Assembly (NCBI GenBank): GCA_026399205.1
Contig: JAPLRL010000035.1
Location: 15,310 to 79,309 of the forward strand
Length of the DNA: 64,000 bases
Source: Gammaproteobacteria bacterium
Lineage (GTDB): Bacteria > Pseudomonadota > Gammaproteobacteria > Legionellales > Legionellaceae
Reading direction: 5' to 3'
Shown here in pieces: positions 2,580 through 64,000 of the stretch; positions within the stretch are counted from its first letter, which is position 1, and every line of letters starts with the position of its first letter. Under the pieces are notes generated by a model. That model was not told the DNA's origin, did not search any database, and saw nothing but the letters and a program-made list of their open reading frames with translations. Position numbers and translations under genes: made by a program.

Positions 2580-2636
2580 CGTAGGTTGGGCCTTGGCCCA
2601 TCTTTAAATCTTTGTTGGGTCAAGGCCCAACCTACG
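2580..2636. repeat. B-family palindrome (B1)
   Basis: CGTAGGTTGGGCCTTGGCCCA-N14-TTGGGTCAAGGCCCAACCTACG. Confidence 0.85.
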
Positions 2637-6317: not shown

Positions 6318-6808
6318 TGATGCGCTCCTAGTGCAATGACCTGCAGACAAACCCAAGCCAACATCCCAGCCACCATATCATCTAACATAATCCCTAGTCC
6401 ACCACCGATGTGGCGATCAATTTTACCAATCCAGGAGAATTTAAAAATATCAAACACTCTAAATAAAATAAAACCCAAAGCTATCCAAATCCAGCCAGGC
6501 GGCGCTAAAAAGAGGGTCAACCATAATCCTACGAATTCATCCCATACAATACTGGGGTGATCATGTCCTCCTATTTTTTTGCTCGCTCTGTCACAAAGCC
6601 AAATGCCTGCTAAAAAAGCAATTAAAATCAGGGTGAGATAAGCGATTGGAGGTAAAGACGCAAAACATAAGTAAAATGGAATGGCCGCAAGGGTTCCGAA
6701 AGTGCCGGGTGCAAATGGCATGAGGCCACTGCCGAAGCCGAAAGCAACAAGACAGGCCGGATCGCGCGTGGCGAGTTGTAGTCGTTTTGATTTATTTTTC
6801 ATGGTCAT
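6308..6808 (-). CDS. pgpA: phosphatidylglycerophosphatase A
   Basis: Carries the PgpA signature ..GSGLMPFAPGTFGTLAAIP..HDHPSIVWDEFVG..MLDDMVAG. It sits in the conserved nusB-thiL-pgpA order. Confidence 0.85.
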   Translation of the reverse strand: MTMKNKSKRLQLATRDPACLVAFGFGSGLMPFAPGTFGTLAAIPFYLCFASLPPIAYLTLILIAFLAGIWLCDRASKKIGGHDHPSIVWDEFVGLWLTLFLAPPGWIWIALGFILFRVFDIFKFSWIGKIDRHIGGGLGIMLDDMVAGMLAWVCLQVIALGAHQWL

Positions 6809-8428: not shown

Positions 8429-8448
8429 TGTTGGGCCCTGGCCCAACA
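8429..8448. repeat. B-family core only (B2)
   Basis: TGTTGGGCCCTGGCCCAACA, between glyA and nusB. Confidence 0.5.
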
Positions 8449-26162: not shown

Positions 26163-26211
26163 GTTGGGCCAAGGCCCAACCTACATTTCGTAGGTTGGGC
26201 CTTGGCCCAAC
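26163..26211. repeat. B-family palindrome (B3), inverted arm order, downstream of acnA
   Basis: GTTGGGCCAAGGCCCAACCTAC-ATTTC-GTAGGTTGGGCCTTGGCCCAAC. Confidence 0.85.
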
Positions 26212-40458: not shown

Positions 40459-40985
40459 TGCAAGATATTCTAGAAAAAGCTAAAAAAATTCAGTGCGTGA
40501 TTTGTGATGTCGATGGGGTGATGACCAATGGTCTGTTATATATTGACAATGCCTGTAATGAATTAAAAGCGTTTCATGTCCAAGATGGCTTAGGCTTAAA
40601 ATTACTCTTAGCCGCTGACCTCGATGTTGCCATCATTACCGGCTCACAAAATGCGGTGATTGATCATCGCATGCAGCAATTAGGCATCACCCATTATTTT
40701 AAAAACCAACACGATAAAACCCAAGCGTTTCTTGAAATCCAAACGCGGTTACGCCTCAGTGATGACGCGTTTGCGTATATCGGCGACGATTTACCCGATC
40801 TCCCTTTTATTAAGCGCGTAGGGCTCGGGGTTGCGGTGGCTAATGCGATAGACGACGTCAAGCTATGCGCTGATTATCAAACCAAAGCCTCCGGTGGAAA
40901 CGGCGCGGTAAGAGAGGTCTGTGATTTGATATTAAGGGCTCAGGGGAAGTATGAGTCTGCGATTGAGCGTTATTTTTCATCATGA
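40458..40985 (+). CDS. kdsC: 3-deoxy-D-manno-octulosonate 8-phosphate phosphatase KdsC
   Basis: HAD motifs are present: ICDVDGVMTNG.., ..ITGSQN.., ..YIGDDLPDLP... Confidence 0.9.
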   Translation: MQDILEKAKKIQCVICDVDGVMTNGLLYIDNACNELKAFHVQDGLGLKLLLAADLDVAIITGSQNAVIDHRMQQLGITHYFKNQHDKTQAFLEIQTRLRLSDDAFAYIGDDLPDLPFIKRVGLGVAVANAIDDVKLCADYQTKASGGNGAVREVCDLILRAQGKYESAIERYFSS

Positions 40986-41551
40986 GCACTCTTCCTGCGG
41001 CACGTCATCCCGAGCGTTCCATGCGTCATCCCGAGCGTAGCGAGGGATCTCCACCCAGTAGCAGGAGATCCCTCGCTACGCTCGGAATGACGTGGAAAAC
41101 GTGCAAGTCATTCGCAATGACCACCGGTTTATTTTTACTCGCCTTTTCCGGCTGGTACTTTGGCAAATCAACCCCACCGCTTTTAAATCAACAGACCCTC
41201 ATGCATCAAGTCGATGCCATCATGACGGATCTCCATTTTTATGAATTTGATGAGCGTGGCCAGCTCAGTAAACACATGGTAGCCGCTAAAATGGAGCACA
41301 TGCCATTTAATAATCAATTTTTTTTGACTCAGGTTATCCTCACGCATCATCAGTCTGAAAATAAAACAAGCATGCATACCGATGCGTTAACCTATCTGCC
41401 CAAAACCGCCCTTGCATTTACCGATTCGCCTGTTATCTTTGAGCAAGCTGAGCAACGCATAGAGTCAAAAGGAATGCAGGCGAATTTAAATACCAATCAA
41501 ATTAAGCTCAATCATGCACGTGCAACTATTAAGCCAAAAGATGAGGCGTAG
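40982..41551 (+). CDS. lptC: LPS export protein LptC, with a repeat-derived N-terminal segment
   Basis: The ATG overlaps the kdsC stop (ATGA). It has a TM anchor (TTGLFLLAFSGWYFG) and an OstA-like body. Codons 8-37 (RHPERSMRHPERSEGSPPSSRRSLATLGMT) are repeat C6. An alternative start at MTTGLF (about 41117) cannot be excluded. Confidence 0.75.
   Translation: MSTLPAARHPERSMRHPERSEGSPPSSRRSLATLGMTWKTCKSFAMTTGLFLLAFSGWYFGKSTPPLLNQQTLMHQVDAIMTDLHFYEFDERGQLSKHMVAAKMEHMPFNNQFFLTQVILTHHQSENKTSMHTDALTYLPKTALAFTDSPVIFEQAEQRIESKGMQANLNTNQIKLNHARATIKPKDEA
41003..41092. repeat. C-family repeat inside the lptC reading frame (C6), 90 nt, left terminus duplicated
   Basis: CGTCATCCCGAGCGTTCCATG + CGTCATCCCGAGCGTAGCGAGGGATCTCC..GGAGATCCCTCGCTACGCTCGGAATGACG. 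The 21-bp duplication encodes RHPERSM. Confidence 0.85.
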
Positions 41552-41616
41552 GTTGGGCCTTGGCCCAACAACGATATTACGCAACACCACAATGTTGGGC
41601 CAAGGCCCAACCTACG
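41547..41616. repeat. B-family palindrome (B4) spanning the lptC/lptA junction
   Basis: CGTAGGTTGGGCCTTGGCCCAAC-N24-GTTGGGCCAAGGCCCAACCTACG. It contains the lptC stop TAG (41549..41551) and the candidate lptA ATG (41592). Confidence 0.9.
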
Positions 41617-42131
41617 TCTTGTTGCTATGTCTTTTCTCATTAAATAGCTTGGCCCTCCCAAGCGATCGCACCCAACCCATCGAACTCCTAGCCGACACCA
41701 TCGAGCTCGATGCCAATACCCAAACCGGCATCTATAAAGGCCATATTCGGTTTTCGCAAGGCAGTGCGCATATGGAAGCAGATGAAGCGACCACCACAAC
41801 CGATAAATCGAATCATCTGATATATGCAGAAGCTAGCGCCCCTCACCCACCTTTCGCTCATTTTTGGACACAGCAGCATGAGAAAGAATCCGCTTTACAT
41901 GCGTATGCCCAAAAAATTCAATATTTTCCAGATAAACACCTGATTGTACTCACAGGAGATGCAAAAATCATCCAAGACAACAATCAAATCAACGCGCCGG
42001 TGATTCGCTTTGATCTCCTAGACCGTCGCATGCTTACTGAAAAAACCCCTACCTCACGAACACAAATTTTGTTCCACACGGATGCTCATCATGCCAACAC
42101 TCTCAGCGCACCATTTAAAAAAAGCGTTTAA
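41592..42131 (+). CDS. lptA: LPS export periplasmic protein LptA
   Basis: OstA-like body (..[59 protein letters not shown]). I set the start at ATG 41592, giving signal peptide [21 protein letters not shown]. The track start at 41514 is the alternative. Confidence 0.75.
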
Positions 42132-42816
42132 GAAAAAAACAGTCGTCAATGACGTCAGTTTATCGATTCAACAAGGCAGCTGTGTGGGCTTACTCGGCCC
42201 CAATGGCGCGGGTAAAACCACCTGTTTTTATATGATCGTCGGCCTGCAATCGTGTGATGCGGGAGAAATCATGTTAGATGAGCAACGTCTGACCCATTTG
42301 CCAATGCACGCCAGAGCAAAAATGGGCATTGGTTATTTACCGCAAGAGCCCTCTATTTTTAGAAAACTCACCGTTGCCGAAAATATTCTTGCCATTTTAG
42401 AGTTAAGAGCCGATTTAGCCTCACATCAACGCTATGATGAATTAGAAAATCTATTAGATGAATTTAAAATCACCCACTTACGAGACCATCTCGGGATGAG
42501 CCTATCCGGTGGCGAGCGTCGCCGCGTGGAAATTGCCAGAGCCCTAGCCAGTTACCCTAAATTTATCTTATTAGATGAACCCTTCGCAGGGGTTGATCCT
42601 ATTTCAGTGATTGATATCAAACAAATGATCACCCATCTTTGTCAAAAAAATATTGGCGTATTGATTACCGATCATCATGTACGAGAGACTTTGGATATTT
42701 GTGACAGGGCTTATATTGTGAATCAGGGGACGGTGTTATGTGAAGGGACACCAGAAGAGGTTTTAGACAATAAACAGGTTCGGGCTGTTTATTTGGGGGA
42801 TGAGTTCTCACTATGA
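42091..42816 (+). CDS. lptB: LPS export ABC transporter ATP-binding protein LptB
   Basis: Walker A (GPNGAGKTT), the signature [15 protein letters not shown] and Walker B ([11 protein letters not shown]) are present. I set the start at MPTLSAHHL. Confidence 0.95.
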
Positions 42817-42831
42817 CTGAGAGAAACAAGA

Positions 42832-42919
42832 AATCCGAGCCGCGACCGTCAGGAAGCGGAAATTTTAAACTCCCGCTCTCCAATAAAACTTCCGCTCCCT
42901 AACGGTCGCGGCTCGGATT
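42832..42919. repeat. A-family, long variant (A5), between convergent lptB and relA
   Basis: Same architecture as A4 (..TTAAACTCCCGCTCTCCAATAAAACTTCCGCTCCCT..). Confidence 0.85.
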
Positions 42920-42944
42920 GATCGAGGTATGCTTTAAGATCTGA

Positions 42945-63724: not shown

Positions 63725-63833
63725 AAGGGTGTTTATTTTATAATTTGTAAGACTAAATAAATTCTACGTGAATTTATTTTGATCTTCAATGCTAAACACG
63801 GCTGTCGCATTATAATTTGATCAATCTGCTGTA

Positions 63834-63855
63834 GTAGGTTGGGCCTTGGCCCAAC
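63834..63855. repeat. B-family solo arm (B5)
   Basis: GTAGGTTGGGCCTTGGCCCAAC, 2 bp upstream of the left target duplication of C10 (10 bp upstream of the element itself). Confidence 0.7.
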
Positions 63856-63865
63856 AATCTGATTA

Positions 63866-63979
63866 GTAACTCCCCACGTCATCCTGAGCGCCAGCGAAGG
63901 ATCTCCTGCTAATTAGCACATTGCTAGCTAGGGGGGATCCTTCGCTGGCGCTCAGGATGACGTGTACCTGGGTAGTTAC
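63866..63979. mobile_element. C-family MITE, short palindromic form (C10)
   Basis: GTAACTCCCCACGTCATCCTGAGCGCCAGCGAAGGATC ... GATCCTTCGCTGGCGCTCAGGATGACGTGTACCTGGGTAGTTAC. It is flanked by identical 8-bp direct repeats TCTGATTA (63858..63865 and 63980..63987). Confidence 0.85.
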
Positions 63980-64000
63980 TCTGATTATTAGATTTAGATT

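Follow-up and report, generated by a model that had tools for sequence, protein, structure and literature searches.

A GTAG-type REPIN at the lptC/lptA junction of a Legionellales genome is probably read through as part of the LptA signal peptide

Introduction

Repetitive extragenic palindromes (REPs) of the GTAG type often supply the TAG stop codon of a flanking open reading frame (ORF), as described by Di Nocera, De Gregorio and Rocco in 2013 (PMC3733652). In the same work repeats of both the GTAG and the CGTC type are described inside genes, where dimers within ORFs encode 20-30 amino acids (aa) and are in excess at ORF N-termini, with the caveat that translation may start downstream. The two families coexist in Coxiella, which also belongs to the Legionellales. 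A doublet with GTAG on the outside is the head-to-head dimer of that study and the REPIN (REP doublet forming a hairpin) of Bertels and Rainey 2011, mobilized by a REP-associated tyrosine transposase (RAYT) (PMC3116915). Here we analyze such a doublet lying where lptC ends and lptA begins, within a stretch of 64,000 nucleotides (nt) of a gammaproteobacterial genome (contig JAPLRL010000035.1, positions 15,310 to 79,309), to which we refer as the window. Both genes are essential for the transport of lipopolysaccharide (LPS).

Palindromic elements in Rickettsia (RPEs) are also cited in PMC3733652, among them RPE-1, RPE-4 and RPE-6. In E. coli, REPs lying less than 16 nt past a stop codon lead to stalling, mRNA cleavage and lower upstream expression, according to the account that PMC12306157 gives of Liang, Rudd and Deutscher 2015 (PMC4427526).

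Results

A REPIN where lptC ends and lptA begins

Profile matches identify the genes of the operon as kdsC, lptC, lptA and lptB (the last by TIGR04406; the others are in Table 1 or, for KdsC, encoded upstream of LptC). At the lptC/lptA junction, positions 41547-41616 form a perfect inverted repeat of 70 nt in total, in which two 23-nt arms, CGTAGGTTGGGCCTTGGCCCAAC (41547-41569) and GTTGGGCCAAGGCCCAACCTACG (41594-41616), are exact reverse complements separated by a spacer of 24 nt. Judged by its sequence this is a REPIN, a head-to-head dimer of the GTAG-tagged REP cGTAGGTTGGGCCTTGGCCCAACa. The 18-nt core of the REP is present at 8 sites in the window (16 matches over both strands), compared with an expectation of 0.03, and in seven of the eight units GTAG lies directly 5′ of a GC-rich 7-bp stem and outside it. 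They are arranged as three inverted doublets, two with GTAG outside and one with GTAG inside, and two singletons. Of these five loci, four lie strictly between genes, and the lptC/lptA copy alone touches coding sequence. The copy number per genome is judged from these 64 kb.

As RNA, the whole palindrome folds into a single long hairpin of −57.8 to −59.8 kcal/mol. For dinucleotide shuffles the mean is −27.2 kcal/mol (z = −9.7), and none of 200 was as stable. Each arm by itself forms a 7-bp stem, GTTGGGC/GCCCAAC, which is inside the range of 5-13 bp for GTAG-tagged REPs and is closed by a 4-nt loop (−12.0 and −12.7 kcal/mol). These values, and whatever is said below of RNA structure and translational coupling, are predicted from thermodynamics. 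An extension of the stem to 41540-41623 was rejected as part of the element, since it consists of G-U pairs only and has no complementarity at the level of DNA. An earlier note on this DNA had described the palindrome well: the folding agrees with its strong hairpin with self-complementary arms at the lptA start, and the lptC TAG does lie in the left arm, within GTAG. It had not recognized the palindrome as a GTAG-type REP/REPIN.

Independent assemblies of three runs each gave a Logan contig that is contained without mismatch in the window, and the junction is spanned by two of these. Because these independent assemblies match exactly, the junction palindrome is not an assembly artifact. A chimera formed at a repeat, or a host sequence that resembles a REP by chance, is effectively refuted, and we give it a negligible probability. 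A stop codon positioned as in the orthologues would suit it, but both 22-nt units match exactly the consensus that recurs 8 times in the window and in no fewer than 120 other contigs, other REPINs have spacers homologous to this one, the orthologues have a clean gap opposite the REPIN-encoded stretch, and assemblies of two further runs span the junction exactly.

A search of Rfam 15 with the palindrome returned no family at its gathering score. Models of miRNA precursors reached about half of theirs, and these matches reflect generic long hairpins. Scans of 40900-42200 for sigma-70 promoters and intrinsic terminators gave nothing relevant, with no terminator-like T tract.

Table 1. Coordinates of the junction REPIN, the genes and candidate start codons around it, and the other copies of the same REP family in the window
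Feature	Positions	Strand	Remarks
lptC as annotated	40982..41551	+	TIGR04409/PF06835; profiles begin at residue 46
lptC stop codon TAG	41549..41551	+	bases 2-4 of the GTAG of the left REP
Left REP unit cGTAGGTTGGGCCTTGGCCCAAC	41547..41569	+	GTAG head outward; holds the lptC stop; identical to the family consensus
REPIN spacer AACGATATTACGCAACACCACAAT	41570..41593	+	24 nt; loops out in the long hairpin; ends with the A and T of ATG 41592
Right REP unit	41594..41616	-	exact reverse complement of the left unit; + strand in the lptA frame reads LGQGPTY
Candidate lptA start, ATG	41514..41516	+	205-aa NCBI protein; 38-nt overlap with lptC; no Shine-Dalgarno sequence (SD); signal peptide 47 aa, n-region +5
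Candidate lptA start, ATG	41541..41543	+	orthologue-like position; 11-nt overlap with lptC (ATGAGGCGTAG), +1 frame offset; signal peptide 38 aa, n-region +4
Candidate lptA start, TTG in left arm	41553..41555	+	6 nt after GAGG (41543-41546); 192-aa protein P0001; signal peptide 34 aa, n-region +1
Candidate lptA start, ATG at spacer/right-arm junction	41592..41594	+	no SD; signal peptide 21 aa, uncharged n-region
LptA signal peptide, h- and c-regions	41616..41654	+	predicted cleavage after Ala 41652-41654
Mature LptA (OstA/LptD_N fold) to stop codon	41655..42131	+	TIGR03002
Head-to-head dimer, same REP family	2581..2635		11-nt spacer; divergent intergenic region
Single family hairpin without GTAG head	8430..8447		core match
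Dimer with GTAG ends facing inward	26163..26211		between convergent genes, 13-14 nt from each stop codon
Single REP unit	63834..63855	+	5′ flank homologous to REP flanks preceding RAYT genes in loci L144 and L160

The lptC stop codon stands essentially at its ancestral position

In an alignment of nine sequences the end of the window LptC falls no more than one residue from the ends of all seven Legionellaceae LptC proteins, and three residues before that of E. coli. Since orthologues that lack the repeat end at the same place, the TAG of the REP stands where a stop codon already stood. This comparison indicates that it abuts or replaces the ancestral stop, with no truncation or extension of LptC and no new gene boundary. 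The earlier note had set its idea of a palindrome supplying both codons against repeat-free orthologues with the same stop and start. One half of that objection holds, as the lptC stop is the same to within one codon.

Supplying TAG stops is a general habit of this REP family. Among 201 units at the loci described in the section on metagenomes below, the TAG of the REP ends an open frame of at least 80 codons (usually 200-680) in 14, and each of the other two frames does so in 7. At one locus (L098, 7957-8013) a single dimer gives a TAG stop to both of two convergent genes.

As a separate observation, the window LptC (41087-41551) is without some 33-38 internal residues that are found in the seven Legionellaceae proteins and in E. 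coli LptC (alignment columns 96-133). Its Pfam and TIGRFAM matches are split into two stretches.

The start of lptA and its signal peptide

The TIGR03002 match in LptA begins at residue 47 of the 205-aa ORF, at a cleavage-site alanine (41652-41654) that is invariant in nine LptA sequences. Ahead of it, the hydrophobic core of the signal peptide begins at 41616, the base with which the right arm ends. Signal peptides require an n-region, which nothing else here could provide, and from this we infer that at least the right arm (LGQGPTY) is translated. Three claims of the earlier note hold here: the right arm does supply signal-peptide codons of LptA, the mature OstA domain follows, and initiation at 41514 would read the whole palindrome, as the lptA frame is open from 41514 to 42131, right through the REPIN.

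The candidate start codons differ in ribosome binding, accessibility and resemblance to orthologues. TTG 41553 is the only one with an SD, the duplex being worth −5.6 kcal/mol, whereas the value for ATG 41592 is +0.3 kcal/mol. We calculated the cost of opening the RNA from −18 to +12 around each start. It is 4.6 kcal/mol for 41514, 26.3 for 41541, 36.1 for 41553 and 29.4 for 41592, and a start at 41619 is likewise costly, within the range of 26-36 kcal/mol. For 20 other genes of the window the cost is 5.9-19.6 kcal/mol, with a median of 9.6. Since the costs within the hairpin far exceed these, the model makes de novo initiation there implausible, and RNA accessibility as predicted favors ATG 41514 alone among the candidates. 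If a ribosome occupies the lptC stop, folding predicts loss of the long hairpin, whereas the right arm keeps its own small hairpin of −12.7 kcal/mol.

Overlap of lptC and lptA is seen in most orthologues (8-32 nt). The two genes of E. coli K-12 share 32 nt, counted from the lptA start to the lptC stop, and kdsC and lptC share 4 nt there. Among seven Legionellaceae loci, most have their likely lptA ATG 8-20 nt ahead of the lptC stop and in the +1 frame offset; both ATG 41541 and ATG 41514 reproduce the overlap in this same offset. Legionellaceae LptA signal peptides are 21-23 aa long in six loci and 30-34 aa in a seventh (L004), and the charge of the n-region is at least +1 in all eight orthologues. 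In the LptA alignment all eight orthologues are gapped by 16-19 residues exactly opposite the REPIN-encoded stretch. The available gene calls begin at 41514 (the NCBI protein) and at 41553 (P0001), both upstream of 41592. The orthologous overlap, the charge of the n-region and the frame open through the REPIN thus favor, on sequence grounds, an upstream start, and we consider it probable that lptA starts at or before the left arm, at 41514, 41541 or 41553, with nearly the whole REPIN being translated.

The earlier note had taken ATG 41592 as the best start. In that reading the REPIN would give lptC its stop and lptA its start; the left arm and the spacer would be an untranslated intercistronic region of 40 nt, and the ancestral n-region codons would have been lost or replaced. 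This ATG is made of the A and T that end the spacer and the first G of the right arm, with LGQGPTY following from the arm. It is element-borne, as an AT beside GTTGGG recurs in this class of spacers (L169, L174 and L187, and on the other side L099, L103 and L188). Its signal peptide of 21 aa is within the orthologue range of 21-23 aa, clean excision of 68 or 70 nt restores no in-frame start upstream, and a ribosome on the lptC stop would leave only the −12.7 kcal/mol hairpin of the right arm in the way. However, it lacks an SD, its n-region MLGQGPTY carries no positive charge where all eight orthologues have at least +1, and its opening costs 29.4 kcal/mol against the median of 9.6. It also lies 41 nt past the lptC stop, which is far for re-initiation. 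Moreover the frame is open for a further 26 codons upstream, to two orthologue-like ATGs (if accidental, this would have a chance of about 0.26, a rough estimate), and both gene callers picked upstream starts. With orthologue starts that overlap lptC, ATG 41592 is not favored, and we regard it as a doubtful start.

The same REP in metagenomes and its link to RAYT genes

Public metagenome contigs were scanned for the exact 22-mer, and at least 120 carry it; the contigs listed hold at least 201 units, the window included. Dozens of head-to-head dimers are present among the matches listed, and their spacers are preferentially about 12, 21 or 24-25 nt long. Over the 201 units position −1 is weakly conserved, and the flanks beyond it are not.

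The spacer of the window REPIN is homologous to REPIN spacers at unrelated loci. It is identical to that of L187 at 15 of 24 positions, a score reached by none of 500 shuffles. As the flanks of these REPINs are unrelated, the homology of the spacers indicates that the doublet and its spacer are one mobile unit that arrived whole. Two single-REP insertions around ancestral lptA codons were considered as a different history, an attractive one in that taking out the two 18-nt hairpins retains the stop and yields a stretch of 26 residues, and were rejected in view of the same homology.

Genes for Y1_Tnp proteins (IS200-like; PF01797 above cut-off) directly adjoin the REP in L144 and L160. NCBI names this type of protein 'REP-associated tyrosine transposase' in Legionella species. 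One is 77% identical to that of the cultured strain Legionella sp. CNM-4043-24, where four units of the REP follow the stop codon of the RAYT. Two Logan contigs (L207 and L209), from source samples that differ from that of the window, have the REP just upstream of a RAYT. We judge from these sequences that the family is widespread in the Legionellales and associated with a RAYT (Y1/IS200-like) transposase.

A search of the 64-kb window with one probe sequence found no RAYT. A block of 30 nt, CACGGCTGTCGCATTATAATTTGATCAATC (63805-63855 region), lies 5′ of the REP at 63834, and it also lies 5′ of REPs that directly precede RAYTs in L144 and L160. The RAYT of this organism may lie just past the end of the window, after an inserted CGTC element (63877-63962), which we offer as a lead only. 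A look-up past position 64000, by way of proteins neighboring the window end, yielded nothing but short Logan contigs, which stop at the REP.

Two variants were seen among the metagenome loci. The REPINs with 24-nt spacers in L103, L114, L174, L187 and L188 are nested in a larger palindrome, TTAAGGAAAATCCTGGTAAGATCGC ... GCGATCTTACCAGGATTTTCCTTAA, which suggests composite elements or a preference for palindromic targets. Single hairpins with GTAG on both sides (GTAGGTTGGGCC..GGCCCAACCTAC), a symmetric form of the unit, are present in L085, L087, L089, L140, L159 and five more loci.

Proposed insertion and read-through

On balance we favor an account in which a selfish REPIN inserted at the junction and is read through as additional n-region of LptA. 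One copy, its spacer included, would have inserted where lptC ends and lptA begins. The GTAG of the REP provides the lptC TAG at essentially the ancestral position. Translation of lptA would most likely begin at ATG 41541 or ATG 41514, giving an orthologue-like overlap, or at TTG 41553 behind GAGG. Ribosomes translating lptC would reach the TAG, melt the base of the stem and re-initiate close by, at 41541 or 41553, so that the two genes would be translationally coupled; alternatively ribosomes could load at the accessible ATG 41514 and unwind the stem while elongating. The 23 residues encoded by the REPIN would be inserted into the n-region of a signal peptide that is cleavable, and their removal on export would leave mature LptA unchanged. 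Such an insertion in an essential operon would be tolerated because the stop was regenerated from GTAG and the coding part fell within a cleaved n-region. The REPIN would be primarily selfish and neutral, any effect on the ratio of LptC to LptA being a side effect.

There is a precedent for in-frame reading within the same REP family, as judged from sequence. In L098 a head-to-head dimer of 54 nt (6731-6784), equivalent to 18 codons, is in frame with the surrounding gene, within the linker that joins the MnmC2 and MnmC1 domains. The encoded MnmC is full-length and bifunctional, matching NF002480 in one stretch over residues 13-673 (558 bits).

A number of points weigh against this account. From GTAG to CTAC the element measures 68 nt, a length not divisible by 3. 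A clean removal of either 68 or 70 nt was rejected as a route to the ancestor, since it puts lptA out of frame or joins lptC to it. A 69-nt unit alone keeps ATG 41541 in frame and restores an orthologue-like junction, and its excision leaves an ancestral signal peptide of about 15 aa and an LptC longer by 10 codons; this is the main weakness. The peptide starting at ATG 41592 is the one that has the length seen in orthologues, and neither ATG 41541 nor ATG 41514 has an SD. The RNA folding and coupling behind read-through are predicted, and the probe search of the window yielded no RAYT. Finally, with no close relative in the collections searched, the pre-insertion sequence and the exact boundaries of the insertion are not reconstructable.

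Relatives of the organism and other repeats in the window

By its sequence matches the organism branches deeply within the Legionellales. Its LptB has its best matches, out of 185,579 species genomes, in metagenome-assembled genomes of Tatlockia and Legionella, at 71-75% identity. Relative to those Legionellaceae LptA is 30-39% and LptC 22-31% identical. Searched against 5.8 billion proteins LptA returned itself alone, with none closer, and a search with LptA of GTDB genomes for a close relative lacking the repeat gave nothing. Exact look-ups of LptB found only identical contigs from the same sample series. None of 80 other lptB loci, 8 Legionellaceae included, has the REP, and no lptC or lptA was found among the at least 120 REP-bearing metagenome loci listed. 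The comparison with relatives that the earlier note proposed was thus possible for the architecture of the junction in distant orthologues; a close pair with and without the repeat is not available in public data.

The inward-facing dimer at 26163-26211 lies at a distance from both neighboring stops that is inside the range reported to affect translation termination in E. coli.

The window contains a second repeat family, CGTCATCCYGAGCG..., which is CGTC-tagged and has 17 arm matches against 0.4 expected. One of its palindromes lies in frame at 41003-41092 in the N-terminus of lptC as annotated, where a partial duplication of 21 nt and a hairpin of 69 nt make up 90 nt. A start of lptC at ATG 40982 preserves the ATGA by which it overlaps kdsC, as in E. 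coli and Legionellaceae, and ATG 41087, in the right arm of the CGTC element (GGAATGACG), gives an N-terminus as long as that of orthologues, with 20 residues before SGWY compared with 19. The CGTC copy at kdsC/lptC poses the same start-codon dilemma as that of lptA, and is strikingly parallel. A third and different palindrome, with 18-nt arms AATCCGAGCCGCGACCGT / ACGGTCGCGGCTCGGATT, is located at 42831-42920 between lptB and a convergent gene of 735 aa. All three junctions around lptC-lptA-lptB therefore carry repeats.

Is the hairpin a regulator of the operon?

Palindromes at all three of these junctions would be in keeping with a hairpin co-opted to regulate the operon, as a coupling gate, by stalling at the stop, or as a barrier to 3′-exonucleases or partial attenuator. 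Acting as a gate, the hairpin of −58 kcal/mol would mask all lptA starts but the distant ATG 41514. Synthesis of LptA and LptB would then require a ribosome to end lptC on the REP-borne TAG and melt the stem, making lptA-lptB translation strictly dependent on that of lptC, and the REP at the stop would also throttle LptC. The kdsC/lptC junction, with its CGTC palindrome, may offer a parallel. Acting as a barrier or attenuator, the hairpin would uncouple the levels of kdsD-kdsC-lptC from those of lptA-lptB.

The geometry is suitable, as the REP stem starts at 41552, 1 nt after the TAG and so inside the limit of less than 16 nt as given in PMC12306157, and all candidate starts other than 41514 are buried at a cost of 26-36 kcal/mol. 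Neither arm departs from the family consensus, but perfect arms are equally expected of a young, neutral copy. Nor is there conservation, to judge by the absence of the REP from all 80 of the other lptB loci, and both a terminator-like T tract and an Rfam family at threshold are missing. We therefore think it improbable that the REPIN is an expression-setting device at the lptC/lptA boundary, a stoichiometry gate in an essential envelope machine.

Discussion

The junction offers a natural example of a selfish palindrome inside an essential operon of a host that survives it. The route to tolerance would be insertion in an n-region that is cleavable and tolerant of sequence change, with the stop of the neighboring gene rebuilt from the element's own GTAG. 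Provision of TAG stops and N-terminal coding overlap by GTAG REPs are already published (PMC3733652); what is new here is the example in an essential operon. The case leaves knowledge of REPs and of LPS transport unchanged. Were the hairpin a gate after all, it would mean that a selfish repeat had been recruited to set stoichiometry in an essential envelope machine.

There are practical consequences. Three different starts are in play for lptA, and genomes of Legionellales rich in REPs will hold many N-termini that are similarly ambiguous, which is a warning for annotation. The REP family GTAGGTTGGGCCTTGGCCCAAC is now defined, being common to many uncultured Legionellales and linked to their RAYT genes. 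The junction is also a ready-made construct for tests of translational coupling.

The closest described system is that of the GTAG REPs and REPINs with their RAYTs. The family described here shares the unpaired GTAG head, the short GC-rich stem-loop, the multiple and mostly intergenic copies, the inverted doublets whose spacers are conserved in length and partly in sequence, and the presence of the REP beside a single Y1_Tnp/RAYT gene. The last of these is seen here in related genomes, whereas in known REPIN-RAYT systems the RAYT is in the same genome. As with published GTAG REPs, GTAG gives its TAG to a flanking ORF, and dimers lie in ORFs, often at the N-terminus. The Legionellales family GTAGGTTGGGCCTTGGCCCAAC was not found in those supplementary files of PMC3733652 that were searched as text. 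Unlike published GTAG REPs, the junction copy lies within an operon, where two essential genes overlap, and part of it is probably translated, with the core of a signal peptide directly behind.

RPEs are likewise in-frame palindromic insertions, tolerated in permissive coding segments, some of them N-terminal and expressed. They differ in being alphaproteobacterial, RPE-4 and RPE-6 being of the CGTC type and RPE-1 being longer. No association of CGTC repeats with RAYTs is reported, whereas the GTAG family at the junction is RAYT-linked. Unlike RPE-encoded sequence, the insert at the junction would be discarded with the signal peptide.

The junction also resembles the stop-proximal REPs of E. 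coli in that its stem is within 15 nt of a stop codon, at a distance of 1 nt. Those REPs, as PMC12306157 presents them, are extragenic and do not contain the start of the next gene. The stalling effect is known from E. coli REPs; at lptC it would be predicted from geometry alone.

Lastly, the operon has the gene order kdsC-lptC-lptA-lptB of E. coli K-12 and the same ATGA overlap of kdsC and lptC. The overlap of lptA with lptC would be 38 nt from ATG 41514 or 11 nt from ATG 41541, compared with 32 nt in E. coli. Unlike the E. coli operon, it has two mobile palindromes at two of its junctions, and within the window lptB is not followed by rpoN on the same strand.

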